Shown piece by piece: positions 4,611 to 54,874 of a stretch of 64,000 bases of DNA (its first letter is position 1; the number at the start of each line of letters is the position of its first letter). The notes below the pieces were generated by a model that was not told where the DNA came from, made no database searches, and saw only the letters and a list, made by a program, of their open reading frames with translations. Position numbers and translations under genes: made by a program. Source of the stretch: Candidatus Woesearchaeota archaeon (GTDB taxonomy: Archaea; Nanobdellota; Nanobdellia; Woesearchaeales; GCA-2687795). The DNA is taken from contig NZBG01000003.1 in the NCBI GenBank assembly GCA_002687795.1, positions 24,557 to 88,556 on the forward strand. The letters are read 5' to 3'.

Positions 4611-6419
4611 ATGACCAAACCATACATAACTGATACATCTGTTGTAATAGAAAAGCAGGTCACAAAGTTAGTAAAGAAAAAGGAAATCAAAGGAACCCTT
4701 CTTATCCCCAAGGCTGTGATAGCAGAGCTTGAGAACCAGGCAAACAAAGGCCAGGAAACCGGCCTGATAGGATTAGAAGAACTGCAATTCTTACAAAAAT
4801 TAGCAAAAGAAGATGCCATTAAGCTGGAGTTTGTAGGTGACAGGCCCAACATTTTCCAGATAAAGAATGCCAAAACCGGCGGAGAGATAGACGCCTTAAT
4901 AATCAGCCTTGCTTATGACAACGATGCCATCCTGATAACAGCAGACAAGGTCCAGGCAGAGTCTGCCAAAGCCTTTGGCCTTGAAGTTAATTTTATCGAA
5001 ACCAAGCAGCCCAAGGAAAAGCTGGAGATAGAAAGTTTCTTTGACGAGCAGACAATGTCCATCCATATCAAAGAAGACTGCTTAGTTCTGGGAAAAAAAG
5101 GAAAGCCCGGCGACTGGAACCTTGTGCAGGCTAACAAAGAAATCCTCCCGGCCCAGAAAGTGCAGAACATGGCAAAAGAGGTTGTTGAAAAATCAAGGAT
5201 AGACCCAAAAGCATTCATAGAAATCTCAAGGGAAGGCTCTACGGTTGTCCAATACAAAAATTACAGGATTGTGATAACAAAACCTCCGGTCTCTGATGGT
5301 TGGGAAATAACTGTTGTCAAGCCCTTGAAAAGGCTTAATATTGAAGACTATAAGCTCCCTGAACAAATCTCAGAGAGGATCAAAGGAAAAGCAAGAGGAG
5401 TTATCATCGCCGGGGAAACCGGCTCAGGAAAAAGCACATTAGCGCAGGCAGTGGCAGAGTTTTACATGAACGATGGCAATGTTGTAAAAACAGTAGAAAG
5501 CCCCCGTGACCTGCAGCTCCCAGACCAGATAACCCAATACTCAAAAAACTTTACCTCAAGCGAAGAGATCCATGACATACTATTCCTATCAAGGCCGGAC
5601 AACATAATCTTTGACGAAGTAAGAGACACCCCGGACTTCAAGCTATACACCGACTTAAGATTAGCAGGCTCCAATTGTTTAGGAGTGCTCCACTCAGCCT
5701 CTCCCATAGACGCTATCCAGAGGTTTATAGGAAGGATGGATCTTGGCATGATACCTTCTGTCCTTGACACAATACTATTCGTTGAAAAAGGCAACATAAG
5801 CAAAGTCTTAAGCCTTCAGATGGTTGTAAAAGTACCCACAGGCATGACAGAAGCTGACCTTGCAAGGCCTGTTGTTGTGGTAACAGACTATCTAACAAAA
5901 AAGCTGGAATATGAGCTTTACTCTTACGGCGAAGAAACCGTTGTGATACCAGTCAAAGCCCAGACATCCACACCCAGCCAAAAGCTTGCAGCTTCCGCTA
6001 TCCAAAACAGGTTCAGGAAATACTCAGACGAAGCTGAAGTTGATGTTATCAGCGGCAACAAATGCATTGTATATGTACCTGAAAACATGATAGCAAGGAT
6101 CATAGGCAAAGAAGGAAAAACCATAGAAACCATAGAAAAAGAACTGGGCATCAACATAGATATCCAGGAACTAAAGCCGAAGCAAGGCAAAGGAAAAAAT
6201 GAGGTTCAGTTTGAATCAAAGCTATCCAAGAGTGGAGTTAAGCTCTTCCTTGGCGCAAAGATGCAGAACAAAGACGTAGACATCTATATAGGAGATGACT
6301 TCTTACTAACAGCCAAAGCAGGCAAAACCGGCGTTATCAAAGTCCACAAAGGAAACAAGATCGGCAAGATATTAATGGACGCTCTGCAGATGGGTGAGAG
6401 GGTAAGGCTTGAAGGTTAG
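4611..6419 (+). CDS. PIN domain - PilT-like ATPase - KH domain protein
   Basis: N-terminal PIN-like region, Walker A GETGSGKST, and a C-terminal KH-like IIGKEGKTIETIEKELG. This architecture is known from archaeal COG1855-type ATPases. Confidence 0.7.
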   Translation: MTKPYITDTSVVIEKQVTKLVKKKEIKGTLLIPKAVIAELENQANKGQETGLIGLEELQFLQKLAKEDAIKLEFVGDRPNIFQIKNAKTGGEIDALIISLAYDNDAILITADKVQAESAKAFGLEVNFIETKQPKEKLEIESFFDEQTMSIHIKEDCLVLGKKGKPGDWNLVQANKEILPAQKVQNMAKEVVEKSRIDPKAFIEISREGSTVVQYKNYRIVITKPPVSDGWEITVVKPLKRLNIEDYKLPEQISERIKGKARGVIIAGETGSGKSTLAQAVAEFYMNDGNVVKTVESPRDLQLPDQITQYSKNFTSSEEIHDILFLSRPDNIIFDEVRDTPDFKLYTDLRLAGSNCLGVLHSASPIDAIQRFIGRMDLGMIPSVLDTILFVEKGNISKVLSLQMVVKVPTGMTEADLARPVVVVTDYLTKKLEYELYSYGEETVVIPVKAQTSTPSQKLAASAIQNRFRKYSDEAEVDVISGNKCIVYVPENMIARIIGKEGKTIETIEKELGINIDIQELKPKQGKGKNEVQFESKLSKSGVKLFLGAKMQNKDVDIYIGDDFLLTAKAGKTGVIKVHKGNKIGKILMDALQMGERVRLEG

Positions 6420-6462
6420 AAATCGAAACCCTTAAATATAATCCAGGAATTCTTATAGTTTA

Positions 6463-6537
6463 ATGAGAGAAAATATCGCAAAGCTAAACCTGAATAATTC
6501 TTTGTTACTGTTAGCTTTGCTTCTGTTACTGTTATAA
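6463..6537 (+). CDS. 24-codon leucine-rich leader peptide (MRENIAKLNLNNSLLLLALLLLLL)
   Basis: ATG 6463 to TAA 6535-6537. 10 of the last 11 sense codons are Leu (TTG, TTA, CTG, CTT). TATA-like TTAAATATA at 6432-6440 is spaced for a leaderless start. The ORF lies 92 nt upstream of leuA. It is too short for the ORF track. Confidence 0.6.
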   Translation: MRENIAKLNLNNSLLLLALLLLLL

Positions 6538-6564
6538 GCATTCCAATTCTTCTTGGAAATGCTT
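6536..6564 (+). promoter_or_regulatory. hairpin overlapping the leader stop codon (candidate attenuator/terminator stem)
   Basis: AAGCATTCCAA (6536-6546) pairs with TTGGAAATGCTT (6553-6564): 11 bp with a 1-nt bulge and a 6-nt loop. It is followed by U-rich CATTGTTATCACTTGTTTATTCTCT. Confidence 0.5.
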
Positions 6565-6629
6565 CATTGTTATCACTTGTTTATTCTCTAAAACTTTAAA
6601 AAATCTTTAAGGAGGAATAAAAAAATAAA

Positions 6630-8198
6630 ATGAAACAAAATGTGAACGATGGAAACAGGGTTTATGTATTCGATACTACATTAAGAGATGGTGAGCAAAC
6701 AGGTAGTACAAGAATGAATGCAGACGAGAAAATTCAGATTGCAAGACAACTTGAGATTCTTGGAGTTGATGTTATTGAAGCGGGGTTCCCTATTTCATCC
6801 CCGGAAGATTATAAGGCTGTGGAATTAATAGCAGCGGAAATTAAAGATCCAATAATCTGTGGTCTAACACGAGCTATACCTGAAGATATTGAGGTATGCG
6901 GCAGGGCTTTGTCAAAAGCCAAGAAACCAAGAATTCATACAGGAATCGGAGTGTCTGACATACACATAACGGGAAAATTTGGAGACGAGAAATATGGAAC
7001 CACTTTAGATGAAAAAAAAGAGACAATTATAGAGATGGCAGTTTCTGCTGTGGGACTTGCCAGGGAATATACAGACGATGTAGAATTTTATGCAGAAGAT
7101 GCGGGAAGAGCAGATATTAGTTATCTTTTAACGGTAATTGAGCATGCTATAGATGCCGGAGCAACAACAGTAAATATCCCTGATACTACTGGCTATAGTA
7201 TTCCTAAACAATTCGGTGCTTTGATAATGACTGTAAGAGAGTCTGTCCCAAATATAGGCAGAGCAATAATCAGTGTGCATTGCCATAACGACTTAGGGAT
7301 GGCTGTTGCCAATACCCTATCCGGAATAGAAAACGGAGCTCAACAGGCAGATGGAACAATAAATGGAATAGGAGAAAGGGCAGGAAATGCTCCTATAGAA
7401 GAAATAGTTATGGCTTTGAAGACAAGAAAGGACTATTTTAACAAAGAAACTGGAATAAACACCAAAGAGATATACAGAACATGTCGTCTTGTCTCGGGGA
7501 TCACTGTCCCAATATCACCATATAAAGCTGTTAGTGGAGATAATGCGCACAAACATTCTTCAGGAATCCATGTAGATGGTTTTTTAAAAAAAAGAGAAAC
7601 TTATCAAATAATGGACAAGAGTGATGTCGGTTTTCCAGAAGACAGAGAATCTATTACATTAACATCACGTACTGGGAGACATGGATTAGGTCATAGACTT
7701 GAAGAACTTGGTTATGAAGTTAGTCGAGAAGAACTAGAAGAAGTTTATCAAAGGTTCCTAGGAATTGCTGACAGCAAGAAAATAGTAACCGATGGAGATT
7801 TAGAAGCAATTATGGAAGACAGGATTGCTGAACAAGTTCCTGAAGTCTATAAGTTAGATTATGTTCATGCAAGCGGCGGTAGTGAGCATATAATACCCAC
7901 AGCTACTGTGAGGTTAATTAAAGATGGTGAAAAGGAACCGCAAGAGTCTGCTGATTGTGGTGATGGTCCTATAGATGCTGTATATAATACTATAGACGGA
8001 ATAACAGGCATCAAAATCGAACTAGTTGGGTATAACATAAGTGCAGTAACAAAGGGGAAAGATGCTGTTGGGGAAGTTATCGTAAGAATAAGGAATAACG
8101 GCAATGTTGCAAGAGGCAGAGGAAGCAGCACAGATATTATAGAAGCCAGTGCCTTTGCTTATGTTAATGCCTTAAACAGGTTGCTTTACAGTATTTAG
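6630..8198 (+). CDS. leuA: 2-isopropylmalate synthase (bacterial-type LeuA with C-terminal regulatory domain)
   Basis: VYVFDTTLRDGEQ, HCHNDLGMAVANT, GIGERAGNAP and HSSGIHVDG motifs align along the whole length with E. coli LeuA as I recall it. GGAGG at 6611-6615. Confidence 0.85.
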   Translation: MKQNVNDGNRVYVFDTTLRDGEQTGSTRMNADEKIQIARQLEILGVDVIEAGFPISSPEDYKAVELIAAEIKDPIICGLTRAIPEDIEVCGRALSKAKKPRIHTGIGVSDIHITGKFGDEKYGTTLDEKKETIIEMAVSAVGLAREYTDDVEFYAEDAGRADISYLLTVIEHAIDAGATTVNIPDTTGYSIPKQFGALIMTVRESVPNIGRAIISVHCHNDLGMAVANTLSGIENGAQQADGTINGIGERAGNAPIEEIVMALKTRKDYFNKETGINTKEIYRTCRLVSGITVPISPYKAVSGDNAHKHSSGIHVDGFLKKRETYQIMDKSDVGFPEDRESITLTSRTGRHGLGHRLEELGYEVSREELEEVYQRFLGIADSKKIVTDGDLEAIMEDRIAEQVPEVYKLDYVHASGGSEHIIPTATVRLIKDGEKEPQESADCGDGPIDAVYNTIDGITGIKIELVGYNISAVTKGKDAVGEVIVRIRNNGNVARGRGSSTDIIEASAFAYVNALNRLLYSI

Positions 8199-8209
8199 GA
8201 AAAATAATC

Positions 8210-8233
8210 TTTTTTTATTTTTTATTTTTCTTT
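8210..8233 (+). terminator. oligo-T tracts after leuA
   Basis: T7, T6 and T5 runs begin 12 nt after the leuA stop. Archaeal RNAP terminates at oligo-T. Confidence 0.5.
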
Positions 8234-8282
8234 CTGAACCATTTCCACAACCTATTTAAACCACTTATCTTTATATCTGATA

Positions 8283-20601: not shown

Positions 20602-21672
20602 ATGGCAAGCAATATACAGGACTTGGAAGAAAGGGCTAGGAACCTATATGCAAAAGGATTAGATCCAACTACATTATCCAAATTGCAGGAAATTGATGAT
20701 CCTTTAGATAGGCTATATTGTACGCTTTCAGTATTACTCCAATCTCCTGAATCTCAAATAGCTGATGACATAAAAGGACCTTTACAACAAACTGTTTCTG
20801 ATTCATATGAAAAAGCCATTAAGGAAAAAGAGAGTCTAGAGAAAAAAACAATAACCGATAAGTTAACTGGATTATTTAATAGATTACATCTGGAAAATAC
20901 AGTTTGCAATGAATTGTCCAGTGCATATAGGGATGGCAAGAAAAAATTCTCAGTCTTATTATTTGATATTGACTTTTTTAAGAAATTTAATGATACATAT
21001 GGGCACACAGCAGGCGATACTGTTTTAATATCACTTGGGGAAATTGTTGATGGAATAACTAGACAGCATGATATTCCTTGTCGCTATGGTGGTGAAGAGT
21101 TTGTAGTTGTTTTGCCAGAAACAGATTTAGATGGCGCAATAAAATATGGTTATCATCTAAATAAAGAAATTGGAAATACCAATATTACTTTCACTGATGA
21201 AGATGGTAATGAACAATCAAAATCAATAAATATCAGCACTGGTGTTACTGAGATTGATCAGGATGATCCTGTTTGGCTTCTTTATGGTAAAGCAGGAAGG
21301 GATATGATAAGAAATTATATTGGAAGTGGTTCCGATATTGAAGGAGAAGATGCAGCAGATATAATGGAACAATATCTCAGTATTTTCAAAAGAAAAGAAG
21401 AGGATGGTGATCATCCACGTTCCAGAAGAAAGAAACCTACAAAAAAGCTATTGAAAGAACAGCTACAAGATGTAGGTGATTTTGTTAGAAAATGGTTGGT
21501 AGAAAAGAAAAAGGATAATACCTCTGTTCACGAATCAAATCAGCAAATAGCTTTTGATTATATAATTAAAAGGGCTGATAATCTCCTGTATTTTGTAAAG
21601 AAAAGTGGAAGAAATAATATTGGGTATCGTAAGAAAGAAACTAACGAGAATGTTCTTTATAGAAAGGACTAA
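20602..21672 (+). CDS. GGDEF-domain diguanylate cyclase with a ~100-aa insertion
   Basis: LTGLFNR, FDIDFFKKFNDTYGHTAGD, I-site RQHD then IPCRYGGEEF (nearly identical to PleD RAIDLPCRYGGEEF as I recall it), and a terminal ADNLLYFVKKSGRNNIGY. Confidence 0.85.
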   Translation: MASNIQDLEERARNLYAKGLDPTTLSKLQEIDDPLDRLYCTLSVLLQSPESQIADDIKGPLQQTVSDSYEKAIKEKESLEKKTITDKLTGLFNRLHLENTVCNELSSAYRDGKKKFSVLLFDIDFFKKFNDTYGHTAGDTVLISLGEIVDGITRQHDIPCRYGGEEFVVVLPETDLDGAIKYGYHLNKEIGNTNITFTDEDGNEQSKSINISTGVTEIDQDDPVWLLYGKAGRDMIRNYIGSGSDIEGEDAADIMEQYLSIFKRKEEDGDHPRSRRKKPTKKLLKEQLQDVGDFVRKWLVEKKKDNTSVHESNQQIAFDYIIKRADNLLYFVKKSGRNNIGYRKKETNENVLYRKD

Positions 21673-42421: not shown

Positions 42422-43165
42422 ATGAAATTAGATATCTCGAAAGTTAATCTAAGTAGATTTGATATTAAAAGAGAATTAACCTTGCCGCAGGAAATGTCAG
42501 AAAAGTTAGCCGAAGATATAGGAATAATGATAGGTGACGGCCATATTGGATCATATATCTTAAAGAAGAAAGAATATCAGATATATGTTTCAGGAAATGC
42601 TTATTTAGACAAAGATTATATATCTAATCATGTCAGAAAATTAAAGAAGGATTTGTATAATCTTGCCTTTCCAGTTTCAGTTGTTGGAAGAAATAAAAGC
42701 GAAATTAGATTAAAGATTTGTTCTAAGGGTTTAGTAGGATTTTATAATAAGATTATTGGCTTACCTGTAAATAAGAAAGAAAATATAGGAATCCCCGATT
42801 GTATATGGGAAAAAAAGAAGTACTTAACCTCATGTTTAAGAGGTATCATTGATACAGATTTCTCATTATGTTTCAAGAAAGTGGAAAAGTACCCAGTGAT
42901 GCATTTAAAAACGTGTAGCATGAGACTAGTACGTGACTGTAAAAAAGCTCTTCAAAAATTAGGGATTAAAGCTAATTCATATTATAACATCTTAGAATAT
43001 CATAAAGTAACTAGAAACAATTTTGTAACTAATTACTTATATATCAACGGAAGGAAGAAATTAAGAAAAGCTGTTGAAGAGATTGGTTTTCATAGTGACC
43101 GTCTAAATGAAAAAATACGGGCCCACAGGGATTCGAACCCTGGACCTAATGAGCGAAGCTTTTGA
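42422..43165 (+). CDS. double-motif LAGLIDADG homing endonuclease-like protein
   Basis: Motif 1 is LAEDIGIMIGDGHIG and motif 2 is LRGIIDTDFSL. The last 16 codons run antisense into the tRNA at 43118-43248. Confidence 0.75.
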   Translation: MKLDISKVNLSRFDIKRELTLPQEMSEKLAEDIGIMIGDGHIGSYILKKKEYQIYVSGNAYLDKDYISNHVRKLKKDLYNLAFPVSVVGRNKSEIRLKICSKGLVGFYNKIIGLPVNKKENIGIPDCIWEKKKYLTSCLRGIIDTDFSLCFKKVEKYPVMHLKTCSMRLVRDCKKALQKLGIKANSYYNILEYHKVTRNNFVTNYLYINGRKKLRKAVEEIGFHSDRLNEKIRAHRDSNPGPNERSF

Positions 43166-48825: not shown

Positions 48826-48924
48826 CGAGCCTGATGGGATTCGAACCCACGACCTATTGCTTACTTCTTCTTAACTAAAGTTGAATAGGAGGCAATCGCG
48901 CTATCCAGACTGCGCTACAGGCTC
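48826..48924 (-). tRNA. tRNA-Arg (CCT) with canonical 24-nt anticodon-loop intron
   Basis: Reverse complement: GAGCCTG TA GCGC AGTCTGGATA GCGC G ATTGC CTCCTA[TTCAACTTTAGTTAAGAAGAAGTA]A GCAAT AGGTC GTGGG TTCGAAT CCCAT CAGGCTC G. Confidence 0.9.
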
Positions 48925-51732: not shown

Positions 51733-51846
51733 TGGGGACGCTGGGATTCGAACCCAGATCCAGCGGTATCTTCAGGGTCATTGCCTTTCGACTCATATCT
51801 CCAGTTACTGGAGCCGCTTATTCTAGCCAGGTTATACTACGTCCCC
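51733..51846 (-). tRNA. tRNA-Trp (CCA) with 40-nt anticodon-loop intron
   Basis: Reverse complement: GGGGACG ... AGCGG CTCCAG[TAACTGGAGATATGAGTCGAAAGGCAATGACCCTGAAGAT]A CCGCT GGAT CTGGG TTCGAAT CCCAG CGTCCCC A. The intron CTGGAG pairs with the exon CTCCAG. The D-arm is weak. Confidence 0.85.
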
Positions 51847-51927
51847 TTAGACTTAACATAAAAAAGCTTCTTATTTAAATATCTTGTCAAAAACTTTATA
51901 TATTATAACTGATTTCAGTATAAAATA

Positions 51928-52011
51928 ATGATGGTAAAACAAACCAATTTAATATTGAAAGATTCTGTTTCAGATAGTTTTACCTTTAAATTCTTTTATT
52001 TCTTTTGGTAA
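51928..52011 (+). CDS. 27-codon aromatic-rich leader peptide (MMVKQTNLILKDSVSDSFTFKFFYFFW)
   Basis: ATG 51928 to TAA 52009-52011. 8 of the last 10 codons are aromatic: 6 Phe, 1 Tyr and 1 Trp. TATA-like TTTATATATT at 51895-51904 is spaced for a leaderless start. The ORF lies 85 nt upstream of DAHP synthase. Confidence 0.6.
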   Translation: MMVKQTNLILKDSVSDSFTFKFFYFFW

Positions 52012-52036
52012 GTGCATAGGATTTTCCTGAATGCAC
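52012..52036 (+). promoter_or_regulatory. hairpin abutting the leader stop codon (candidate attenuator/terminator stem)
   Basis: GTGCAT (52012-17) pairs with ATGCAC (52031-36), with an inner AGG/CCT pairing. It is followed by CATTATCTCGACTTTTATTCTCTATAAATTTTTT. Confidence 0.45.
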
Positions 52037-52096
52037 CATTATCTCGACTTTTATTCTCTATAAATTTTTTAACAAAAATCCGGAGGACTAGAAAAA

Positions 52097-53176
52097 ATGA
52101 TAATAAAAATGGAAATGGGAACAGATGAAAAGAATATAAAGAGAGTTGAAGCTAAAATAAACGAGCTTGGGTATGAAGTTGGAGAGATACATGGAACAAC
52201 AAGAACAGTGATAGGAATAAAAGGAGATGTTTCAGAACTTAATGAAGACACTTTCATTCCTCTGCCTGGTGTGGAAGAGGTTATAAGGATAAGTAAACCC
52301 TATAAGCTAGCCAGTCTGGAATACAAAACCCTGCTGAATGGAGGAACTCCTGTATACACAAGAGTTAGTGTTGATGGCATTGAAATTGGAGGAGATAAGC
52401 TTGTAATTATGGCTGGTCCTTGCGCAATTGAAACCAAGCAACAAATAATGGATGCAGCAAAGTCCATTGATAGAATCTTCCAAGAACAGGAACATATAGC
52501 CAGGCCTATACTAAGAGGAGGTGCCGATAAGCCAAGAAGCAGCCCATATTCTTTCCAGGGCTTAGGTGAAGAAGGGCTTGAATACCTGGCTGAAGCAGGG
52601 GAAAGATATAAAATGCCAACTGTAACTGAAGTAGTCAGCACAGAAAAGGTTGAACTTGTTAGCAAATATGTAAAGATTCTCCAGGTTGGCGCCAGAAATA
52701 TGGATAACTTCGAACTGTTAAAAAGTATTGGGCAATCTGGGAAACCGGTTTTACTGAAAAGAGGAATGGCTGCAACTGTGGATGATCTACTACAATCTGC
52801 AGAATATATCCTCGATAATGGAAACAGCAATGTTATCTTATGCCTTAGAGGCACAAAATCCTTTGACAGCGGGAAAAACGGACCTTACAGAAACAACCCT
52901 GATGCTGCATATGCCGTGGCTCTAAGAAAACTTACCCCTCTTCCAACTGGATTTGATCCCAGCCATTCGACCGGAGCAAGGTATGCAGTTAAAGGAGTGG
53001 CTATAGGCGCTGTTTCTATGGGAGCTGATTTCCTTTTAGTAGAAGCTCACCCAAATCCAGAAAAGGCACTATGTGATGGGTCTCAAAGCCTGCATATGGA
53101 AGAACTAAGGGAATTAGTTAATGCAGCTAATGATTTCAGAGGCTTATATAATCACCATTTCAATGGAAAAGATTAA
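52097..53176 (+). CDS. 3-deoxy-7-phosphoheptulonate (DAHP) synthase, type I-beta with N-terminal ferredoxin-like regulatory domain
   Basis: LVIMAGPCAIE, RGGADKPRSSPYSFQGLGEEGL, LQVGARNM, LKRG and DPSH motifs. The ~75-aa N-terminal extension is like that of Thermotoga-type enzymes. Confidence 0.85.
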   Translation: MIIKMEMGTDEKNIKRVEAKINELGYEVGEIHGTTRTVIGIKGDVSELNEDTFIPLPGVEEVIRISKPYKLASLEYKTLLNGGTPVYTRVSVDGIEIGGDKLVIMAGPCAIETKQQIMDAAKSIDRIFQEQEHIARPILRGGADKPRSSPYSFQGLGEEGLEYLAEAGERYKMPTVTEVVSTEKVELVSKYVKILQVGARNMDNFELLKSIGQSGKPVLLKRGMAATVDDLLQSAEYILDNGNSNVILCLRGTKSFDSGKNGPYRNNPDAAYAVALRKLTPLPTGFDPSHSTGARYAVKGVAIGAVSMGADFLLVEAHPNPEKALCDGSQSLHMEELRELVNAANDFRGLYNHHFNGKD

Positions 53177-54772: not shown

Positions 54773-54874
54773 TGGGCCTGACCGGATTTGAACCGGTGAT
54801 CCCCGCCAAGTCAAGGCGATGTCATAGCTTCTAGTTGCAAAGCAAGGCTTTACCAATCACTAGACCACAGGCCC
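54773..54874 (-). tRNA. tRNA-Val (GAC) with ~26-nt D-loop intron
   Basis: Reverse complement: GGGCCTG TG GTCT AGTGATTGGTA[AAAGCCTTGCTTTGCAACTAGAAGCT] TGAC A TCGCC TTGACTT GGCGG GGATC ACCGG TTCAAAT CCGGT CAGGCCC A. U37 is unusual, so the anticodon call is less certain than the gene call. Confidence 0.7.

Follow-up and report, generated by a model that had tools for sequence, protein, structure and literature searches.

In a 64,000-nucleotide (nt) stretch of contig NZBG01000003.1 from a Candidatus Woesearchaeota archaeon (hereafter the window), we find that leuA, the gene for 2-isopropylmalate synthase, is preceded by a short open reading frame (ORF1) that encodes the leucine-rich peptide MRENIAKLNLNNSLLLLALLLLLL. 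Judging from the sequence and from comparison, all of it computational evidence, ORF1 is likely a functional leader peptide that responds to amino-acid supply. A second leader of this kind, rich in aromatic residues, precedes a DAHP synthase gene in the same window, and comparable leaders were detected at two other archaeal loci. The kind is known in bacteria and appears to be unreported in archaea, for which four candidate examples are now at hand. These are probably, though far from certainly, the first archaeal ribosome-mediated amino-acid attenuators, which would occur in at least two phyla, have been seeded from bacteria, have been rewired in archaeal fashion and have an output without a hairpin terminator. 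The sensing half of this explanation is well supported by the sequence, whereas the output half is weaker.

Half of the codons of ORF1 encode leucine (12/24), with 10 of these among the final 11 codons, and five of the six types of leucine codon are used. For comparison, the leucine frequency across the window genes is 9.3%. Phe, Tyr and Trp are absent from the peptide. When all ATG-initiated ORFs of 10-60 codons on both strands of the window (n=923) were ranked by the density of a single residue, ORF1 came first; its sole rival in density, an ORF with Leu at 9/11 positions, lies antisense inside the coordinates of a predicted gene. The start codon of leuA follows the ORF1 stop codon after a gap of 92 nt. 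The identity of this gene is confirmed by the domains of its product (HMGL-like, HCS_D2 and LeuA_dimer in Pfam) and by NCBIfam, where it clears the cutoffs of TIGR00973 (leuA_bact equivalog) and NF002086, whereas the archaeal-type model LEU1_arch scores below its cutoff. The sequence-only reading from which this analysis started had described the ORF, its terminal leucine run and its position before the enzyme that commits carbon to leucine, and all three descriptions hold.

The TATA element of the leader transcript, CTTAAATA, matches TTTAAATA at 7/8 positions and begins at -32 from the ORF1 ATG. Upstream of 60 other genes of this genome, TATA-like 8-mers (TTTAAATA) peak at -33 to -28 from the start, and by this spacing most genes of the genome look leaderless. 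The element at -32 therefore leads us to expect the ORF1 AUG at, or next to, the 5' end of the transcript, and the spacing predicts that ORF1 is translated as a leaderless mRNA. An archaeal promoter at leaderless spacing had already been proposed, and the genome-wide peak bears this out. In archaea, first cistrons are often leaderless and internal cistrons are led by a Shine-Dalgarno (SD) sequence; in this genome as well, SDs mark internal cistrons. A GGAGG at most 25 nt from the start was found for 4 of 62 window genes, among them leuA and the DAHP synthase gene (p=0.003). Since leuA carries an SD as internal cistrons do, we argue that it is read from the leader transcript. Both the GGAGG and the leuA ATG lie where the sequence-only reading had placed them. 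Downstream, leuA is followed by several U tracts that exemplify a strong terminator in this genome, and given this terminator, leader and leuA form a self-contained unit. The leader is easily overlooked: in the public ENA annotation, an antisense ORF of 41 amino acids (6416-6541, minus strand) is the called gene in this place. Probably a gene caller produced this ORF in error and thereby obscured the leader, and annotators should be warned of such spurious calls.

The aromatic leader has the same layout as the leu leader (Table 1). It shares the top rank in aromatic density among the 923 small ORFs, with aromatic residues at 7 of 9 positions and only two Leu in the whole peptide. The sequence-only reading had mentioned a second cognate example in this window (51895-52096), which we can confirm as an aromatic ORF before a DAHP synthase gene. 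One of the three tRNA genes of the window that presumably contain introns shares a divergent promoter region with this leader. Among the Pfam-matched ORFs of the window and the called genes of two flanking stretches, leuA and the DAHP synthase gene are the only ones for amino-acid biosynthesis. Both are solitary: neither the window nor the flanks that we fetched gave leuBCD, ilv or another aro gene. This DPANN lineage is usually described as biosynthesis-poor. We favour a leader function because the densest Leu ORF precedes leuA and the joint-densest aromatic ORF precedes the DAHP synthase gene.

Table 1. Features of the leader regions and of the genes that they precede, with the tRNA genes of the window. 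Positions refer to the window unless a locus is named.
Feature	Position	Strand	Basis or remark
BRE (B recognition element)/TATA promoter of leu leader transcript	6425-6440	+	TATA CTTAAATA at 6431-6438; transcription start site predicted
ORF1, leaderless leader peptide MRENIAKLNLNNSLLLLALLLLLL (predicted sensor ORF)	6463-6537	+	stop TAA 6535-6537
Hairpin A, 10 base pairs (bp), GCAAAGCUAA with UUAGCUUUGC, 3' arm inside Leu run	6478-6520	+	minimum free energy (MFE) and centroid structures
Hairpin B, 11 bp with one bulge, starts within ORF1 stop codon	6536-6564	+	-10.3 kcal/mol
ORF2, hypothetical relay mini-ORF MLHCYHLFIL	6559-6591	+	AUG in hairpin B 3' arm, stop in pyrimidine box
Predicted SD-masking stem-loop (box, AU-rich apical hairpin, GGAGG)	6580-6621	+	folding
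Pyrimidine box TTATTCTCTAAAA, predicted SD partner	6581-6593	+	pairing probability
SD GGAGG of leuA	6611-6615	+	read from sequence
leuA, bacterial-type 2-isopropylmalate synthase with LeuA allosteric domain	6630-8198	+	Pfam, NCBIfam
Multi-U-tract terminator after leuA (T7, T6, T5)	8210-8235	+	T runs past leuA stop
tRNA genes (three), 99-114 nt, presumably with introns	48826-48924, 51733-51846, 54773-54874	-	Rfam; missed by ARAGORN
TATA TTTATATA of aromatic leader	51895-51902	+	8/8 under scoring used; -33 from ORF1 ATG
Aromatic leader ORF1 MMVKQTNLILKDSVSDSFTFKFFYFFW (Phe/Tyr/Trp-rich)	51928-52011	+	joint top aromatic density of 923
Hairpin B of aromatic leader, begins 1 nt past stop	52012-52036	+	-10.0 kcal/mol, top 1% of background
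ORF2 of aromatic leader, hypothetical, MHHYLDFYSL	52031-52063	+	10 codons, placed as in leu leader
Pyrimidine box TTATTCTCTATAA of aromatic leader	52051-52063	+	shared 13-mer TTATTCTCTAWAA; SD pairing
SD GGAGG of DAHP synthase gene	52082-52086	+	read from sequence
DAHP synthase with N-terminal ferredoxin-like regulatory domain	52097-53176	+	PF00793 and PF18152; NF006421 above cutoff
L086 leader: TATA TTTAAATA at -32, leaderless ORF MNNKVKRINSFLVFSYFGSFY, AGGAGG	L086:126-314
Methanofastidiosa leader: BRE/TATA at -30, leaderless 22-codon ORF MGKIRSSEMVSKKFYYYFSFRY, AGGAGG	L215:1028-1200

Archaeal counterparts and bacterial relatives

An ortholog of the window's DAHP synthase (56% identity, mutual best hit) is encoded on contig Ga0434945_003506 (L086), which is archaeal by its RNase P p30 and its archaeal PheRS. 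No closer relatives of either DAHP synthase were detected in a second protein search. The L086 gene is preceded by a leaderless aromatic ORF, and a second ORF (240-290, MLYIWFFIVKIILLQF) begins 8 nt past the first stop. The sequence CTTCATTGTTA is common to the L086 leader and the leu leader of the window. The fourth leader lies on contig Ga0496408_006997 (L215), named Candidatus Methanofastidiosa archaeon, upstream of an SD-led aro operon (CM_2, DAHPS, DAHPS, DHQS, DHQase/SDH). In the MFE structure of this leader, ORF1 codons 1-11 pair with the post-stop spacer in an imperfect 26-bp helix that includes the stop, and the aromatic codons are left in the loop. Taken as a whole, this fold does not differ significantly from shuffles.

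When comparing the four archaeal leaders, we observed that the last sense codon is cognate in each of them and that the run ends there, while the remaining peptide is not conserved. Furthermore, all four share a conserved GAAA..TTTAAATA block, a near-perfect TATA element at -30 to -33 from the ORF1 AUG, which is the spacing of this genome's leaderless genes, and a GGAGG before the target gene.

Two further candidates were rejected. The ORF upstream of the PheRS alpha gene (L086:2502-2642, 37 codons, leaderless-looking) contains only two Phe and is thus not retained as a Phe leader; it overlaps the start of pheS and carries the motif CATTGTTA, which is also present in two leaders. The DAHP synthase locus P0124 turned out to be bacterial, with MinC as a neighbour. 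Upstream of it (L218:2200-2584) we noticed by eye a T-box-like leader, AGGGTGGTACCGCG and then a terminator-like element. Were this confirmed, at least three types of RNA-level control would act on this enzyme family. The region upstream of the ThrRS gene (L090) contains no leader. In metagenomes, the pattern TTATTCTCTAWAA...GGAGG was found in at least 120 stretches; among the matches listed there was no cognate leader or biosynthetic gene, and this search is uninformative.

The host is an uncultured marine archaeon, and its contig stems from the TARA Oceans assemblies. By its gene content the contig is clearly archaeal: besides the three tRNA genes with presumed introns, the window encodes Pop5, proteasome alpha, SBDS, the exosome proteins Rrp4/41/42, Hef, an archaeal CCA-adding enzyme and uS2, and the flanks encode RNA polymerase subunits L and N, an A-type ATPase and Sec61-beta. 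Both leuA and the DAHP synthase gene are of bacterial type. Apart from the organism's own protein, the nearest LeuA in a large protein database has at most 66% identity, and every one of the nearest homologues with a source name or an examined contig is bacterial. The three closest loci that we examined (62-66% identity) are on GC-rich contigs whose terminators are of the bacterial type, and they have Leu-rich leaders that are followed by GC hairpins and U runs. One bacterial locus (L084:85-260), for instance, contains a Leu-rich leader (MICTNSLLIYLLLLTSLLSL...), then a GC hairpin with T7 and then leuA. A small ORF with at least five Leu in seven residues was present at about 11 of the 79 bacterial LeuA loci fetched. 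Among the GTDB matches listed for leuA, there were only bacterial loci, with at most 56% identity. Thus, the comparison of related leuA upstream regions that the sequence-only reading had proposed did yield Leu-rich leaders at the nearest bacterial loci, and no archaeal ortholog was among the matches listed. For the DAHP synthase, a relative in an Aminicenantes metagenome-assembled genome (L212:960-1105) is preceded by a sigma-70 promoter, a Tyr-rich leader (MKSLKIRYSYYYDSYYYKRMGL, with YSYYYDSYYY) and a terminator, which lie in front of CM-DAHPS-PDH. Because bacterial relatives of both enzymes carry attenuators made of a leader and a terminator, it is plausible that gene and leader were transferred together, and they were probably acquired from bacteria as a unit that was then rewired to an archaeal promoter.

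Structure of the leader RNA

The leu leader as a whole folds well compared to dinucleotide shuffles (z=-3.4). Its post-stop region has an MFE of -18.5 compared to -10.5 +/- 2.5 for the shuffles (p about 0.003), and the post-stop region of the aromatic leader is likewise low in folding energy (p about 0.007). To the sequence-only reading we owe the 11-bp hairpin over the ORF1 stop codon (hairpin B), and it stands out: only 0.8% of 1089 background windows (34-nt windows of this stretch that begin at stop triplets) fold as well. We modelled a ribosome as a 30-nt mask (an assumed size) that was moved codon by codon along ORF1, beginning with codon 11 and ending on the stop. In these constrained folds, hairpin A melts under a ribosome at any position of the Leu run, and hairpin B opens when the A-site is at the last sense codon or at the stop. 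This agrees with the earlier suggestion that a ribosome on the last Leu codons would block the 5' arm of hairpin B.

Between hairpin B and leuA lies the pyrimidine box. The exact 13-mer TTATTCTCTAWAA occurs within the window only here and at the corresponding position of the aromatic leader. The leuA SD pairs with positions 6586-6595 at a probability of 0.8-0.98, and for each of the four archaeal leaders the predicted partner of the SD is located in the spacer. In the three Woesearchaeota-type leaders, the probability that the SD is unpaired is 0.02-0.13 in folds of the post-stop region and 0.03-0.14 in folds of the full leader, and it is 0.22 in the full Methanofastidiosa leader, compared to 0.26-0.69 at five other SD-bearing genes. 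As a specific anti-SD, the box was nevertheless rejected on statistical grounds, since shuffled spacers mask the SD about equally well. The mycobacterial model, in which a stalled ribosome directly covers an anti-SD, was rejected as well, given the predicted position of the SD partner in the spacer. Competition for the box by the purine-rich 5' end of ORF1 (a 1:3 pairing) was not above shuffles, with a marginal value for the Methanofastidiosa leader (p=0.046). Furthermore, masking of the 5' arm of hairpin B does not make the 3' arm pair with the pyrimidine box, and the unpaired probability of the SD remains 0.05-0.06.

We detected no intrinsic terminator (GC hairpin and U run) in either window leader with a terminator scan that does detect one in the bacterial comparator L212. 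The sequence-only reading had noted a U-rich stretch after the hairpin; the leu spacer is indeed moderately U-rich (T fraction 0.37), but it has no run of four or more T and thus no U4 tract. No mutually exclusive pairing of the antiterminator/terminator type appeared in the masked folds from codon 11 to the stop, so that the proposed folding of the leader for alternative structures revealed no simple switch. Of the analogy to bacterial leu, phe and trp attenuators, the leader-peptide sensing half is thus retained, whereas an E. coli-style terminator was not detected and a ribosome on the Leu codons or the stop is not predicted to change SD access. A sigma-70-like promoter was not found at the leu leader, and the aromatic leader has a single 9/12 match, which is below the shuffle mean of 2.1. 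The window contains no match to Rfam leader, T-box or riboswitch families at the gathering threshold; in E-value mode there were only chance matches, such as Phe_leader with 15 bits against a gathering threshold of 55 and on the wrong strand.

Each window leader contains exactly one further AUG, which lies within the 3' arm of hairpin B and opens a second, hypothetical mini-ORF (ORF2). Both ORF2s terminate in the pyrimidine box, 18-19 nt before GGAGG, and both are 10 codons long despite a 2-nt shift of the box against the AUG from one leader to the other. With a ribosome at the end of ORF1, the modelled probability that this second AUG is unpaired rises from 0.12 to 0.55-0.62 in the leu leader and from 0.19 to about 0.83 in the aromatic leader. 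With a ribosome on ORF2, the SD goes from 0.06 to 0.43-0.46 unpaired (leu) and from 0.03 to 0.37-0.69 (aromatic). Translation of ORF2 is the only modelled route that alters access to the SD. We nevertheless consider it unlikely that a relay through ORF2 is real.

Proposed mechanism and alternative explanations

We propose the following model for the start of transcription, for ORF1 translation, for the leucine response and for the entire output. The transcript would be an archaeal mRNA with two cistrons, the leaderless ORF1 followed by the SD-led leuA. Transcription would start at or next to the ORF1 AUG, and a ribosome would load there. With ample charged tRNA-Leu, it would pass the 12 Leu codons, terminate and leave; hairpin B would then re-form and the leuA ribosome-binding site would stay buried in a structured, pyrimidine-rich spacer. 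Under a shortage of charged tRNA-Leu, ribosomes would dwell on the Leu codons that run up to the stop, and a ribosome on the final codons would keep hairpin B open, which would most likely result in more initiation at leuA. This could occur in two ways: the freed single strand may serve as a standby or landing site, or the AUG of ORF2 (6559) may be exposed, so that translation of ORF2 reaches into the pyrimidine box and frees the SD from it. Either a relay or a standby-site effect gives the right sign of regulation. The mode would be translational attenuation as in the mycobacterial poly-Cys small ORFs (sORFs) or ermC, rather than by an E. coli terminator, and translation of leuA would presumably also shield the transcript from factor-dependent termination. 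That the output is mainly translational is quite possible, but we do not regard it as established, and the entire explanation, a Leu-sensing leader with translational attenuation of leuA, is accordingly offered as a tentative one. If the archaeal leaders are attenuators that work without a hairpin terminator, their output could be unmasking of the SD, perhaps by a relay of two mini-ORFs, or termination that depends on U tracts and aCPSF1.

Several observations weigh against this model. Masking of the SD is no better than in dinucleotide shuffles (fractions at least as masked: 0.45, 0.11 and 0.16), and in the folding model the SD remains paired (about 0.06 unpaired) wherever on ORF1 the ribosome is placed. 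The codon tract of ORF1 is not paired with the SD in any of the four archaeal leaders (P <= 0.01), and the complementarity of the spacer to the 5' segment of ORF1 and to the SD region does not exceed shuffles in either case. The whole-leader folds of the aromatic, L086 and Methanofastidiosa leaders are not significant, and the stop-codon hairpin, which is weak in L086, reaches significance in neither of the two leaders outside the window. ORF2 has no good SD, is absent from the Methanofastidiosa spacer and has a length near the chance expectation for AT-rich DNA. Furthermore, T-rich intergenic DNA inflates Leu and Phe codons, the SD-to-AUG spacing of leuA is long (14 nt), and the element TTTAAAAA at -35 of leuA could yield leuA transcripts that are independent of the leader. 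Lastly, the leu leader has no orthologous copy for comparison, the nearest LeuA loci examined being bacterial, and the four assemblies of the population are identical in the leader and give no polymorphism signal.

Transcription attenuation in archaeal style would keep the sensing of tRNA-Leu and replace the output by premature termination in the U/C-rich spacer via aCPSF1/FttA, where the position of the ribosome or hairpin B sets the access to U/C-rich RNA. The bacterial relatives of both genes rely on termination, the spacers of the three aromatic leaders each contain at least one U4 tract, and the pyrimidine box resembles a shortened form of the genome's real terminators. A precedent is found in M. 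maripaludis, where U4 tracts and aCPSF1 give a graded termination efficiency, about 43% with one tract. However, the leu spacer lacks even a run of four T, neither window leader has a hairpin with a U run, and we know of no need for, or response to, hairpins in archaeal RNA polymerase. A plain loss of ribosome coupling would also have the wrong sign, with less expression on starvation, and no alternative pairing that would invert the sign was found above shuffles. We thus consider this output unlikely.

Alternatively, the stalled ribosome may act on mRNA decay. A ribosome on the Leu run would block 5'-to-3' decay (aRNase J / aCPSF2 type), such that leuA mRNA is longer-lived when leucine is scarce, and no RNA switch would be required. 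This would account for coding features that are kept in four leaders while RNA structures are not, and it fits the position of ORF1 at the extreme predicted 5' end. A parallel exists in Bacillus, where a stalled ribosome stabilises ermC mRNA. Stabilisation does not account for hairpin B, which is in the top 1% in two leaders, for the identical 13-mer or for why the main gene would need an SD, and we rate it as improbable.

A similarly low probability applies to the leader as an evolutionary relic that was transferred horizontally together with a bacterial leuA and regulates nothing now. The bacterial type of leuA, the classical attenuators of its bacterial relatives and the loss of the bacterial terminator module would all fit. 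However, the nearest bacterial LeuA is only 66% identical, which points to an old transfer after which an unused ORF of 75 nt should have decayed. Instead, the AT content of the leader is like that of the host, and it has an archaeal BRE/TATA at the exact leaderless spacing. The two archaeal DAHP synthase leaders have furthermore retained their aromatic run over 44% protein divergence while other residues differ.

Least of all do we expect ORF1 to be a chance or unrelated small ORF, with T-rich DNA that reads as a Leu-rich or hydrophobic peptide (such DNA favours Leu, Phe and Tyr codons), gene callers that chose the antisense ORF instead and leuA transcribed from TTTAAAAA (6595-6602; 7/8 TATA match), as this is at odds with the rank of ORF1 as 1 of 923, the cognate match at four archaeal loci and the clean residue specificity with no aromatics in the Leu leader. 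The element TTTAAAAA, which the sequence-only reading had considered as leuA's own promoter, is not supported in this role: at -35 it is just beyond the usual range, and the other three archaeal loci have no conserved proximal TATA like it. Transcription from it would leave GGAGG outside the transcript and thus useless, yet this motif is present at all four loci and rare elsewhere.

Known attenuators and further observations

Attenuation by leader peptides is a textbook mechanism of bacteria that needs coupled transcription and translation. Archaea couple the two as well, yet according to a paper of 2021 (Blombach et al., PMC8448881) neither attenuation nor antitermination has a known archaeal example. 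For transcription attenuation, this supports the view of the sequence-only reading that leader-peptide attenuation is not established in archaea. Ribosome profiling (Ribo-seq) of M. mazei merely notes possible upstream ORFs. Our full-text literature searches, which covered subscription journals thinly so that an older report is possible, returned no leader-peptide regulation in archaea.

Compared to the classical attenuators (E. coli/Salmonella leuL, pheL, trpL and hisL), the leu leader is similar in its ORF with a cognate run before the committing enzyme, the hairpin beside the leader stop and the proposed sensing by ribosomes that pause on hungry codons. It differs in its archaeal host, its BRE/TATA promoter and its leaderless ORF, in the lack of a terminator of GC hairpin and U run or detectable exclusive pairings, in the lack of an Rfam leader match and in the cognate run, which reaches the last sense codon.

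Closer in output are the leaderless poly-Cys sORFs of mycobacteria, which are translational attenuators by experiment (Canestrari et al. 2020, bioRxiv 10.1101/834739). Like the leu leader, they have a first cistron with a cognate run and no terminator; their leaderless start, masked SD and translational output are paralleled by what we predict or propose for the leu leader. In these bacterial sORFs, however, the Cys codons pair with the SD region and a stalled ribosome unmasks it directly, whereas the predicted SD partner in the archaeal leader is 45-55 nt past the ORF1 stop and out of reach. An intermediate step (hairpin B, a standby site or ORF2) would therefore be required. In the attenuation of ermC and cat, a paused ribosome opens a hairpin near the leader end, and the downstream SD is otherwise buried, as proposed here. 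These systems depend on a drug and sense the nascent peptide rather than tRNA charging; moreover, their switch has four segments, where pairing of segments 2 and 3 releases the SD in segment 4, and an equivalent re-pairing is not predicted for the leu leader.

The actinobacterial LEU element consists of a Leu-run ORF before leuA with a conserved pseudoknot (Seliverstov et al. 2005, PMC1262725). Like the archaeal leader, it has no obvious terminator and a pairing that involves the leuA SD. Unlike the archaeal leader, it has a base stem in which Leu codons pair with the SD, which is not predicted here; it occurs in bacterial hosts and has no sequence relation to our leader. In Deinococcus deserti, leader peptides have been predicted from a 5'-terminal AUG for amino-acid and tRNA-synthetase genes (de Groot et al. 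2014, PMC4007540). These are leaderless as well, but the host is bacterial and transcription attenuation is predicted.

The four cognate leaderless leaders are short constructs for work in genetically tractable archaea. They raise the questions of whether ribosomes of archaea are used to sense amino acids, which output takes the place of the bacterial hairpin terminator and how a regulatory module survives the passage between domains with different RNA polymerases.

Two further genes of the window stand apart from the leaders. A GGDEF diguanylate-cyclase protein is encoded at 20602-21672 (plus strand; PF00990, E = 6.6e-37). To our knowledge, cyclic-di-GMP signalling is not an established archaeal trait, and this gene may be another bacterial acquisition. 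In addition, a free-standing LAGLIDADG protein that resembles homing endonucleases is encoded at 42422-43165 (plus strand), not obviously within an intron or intein.

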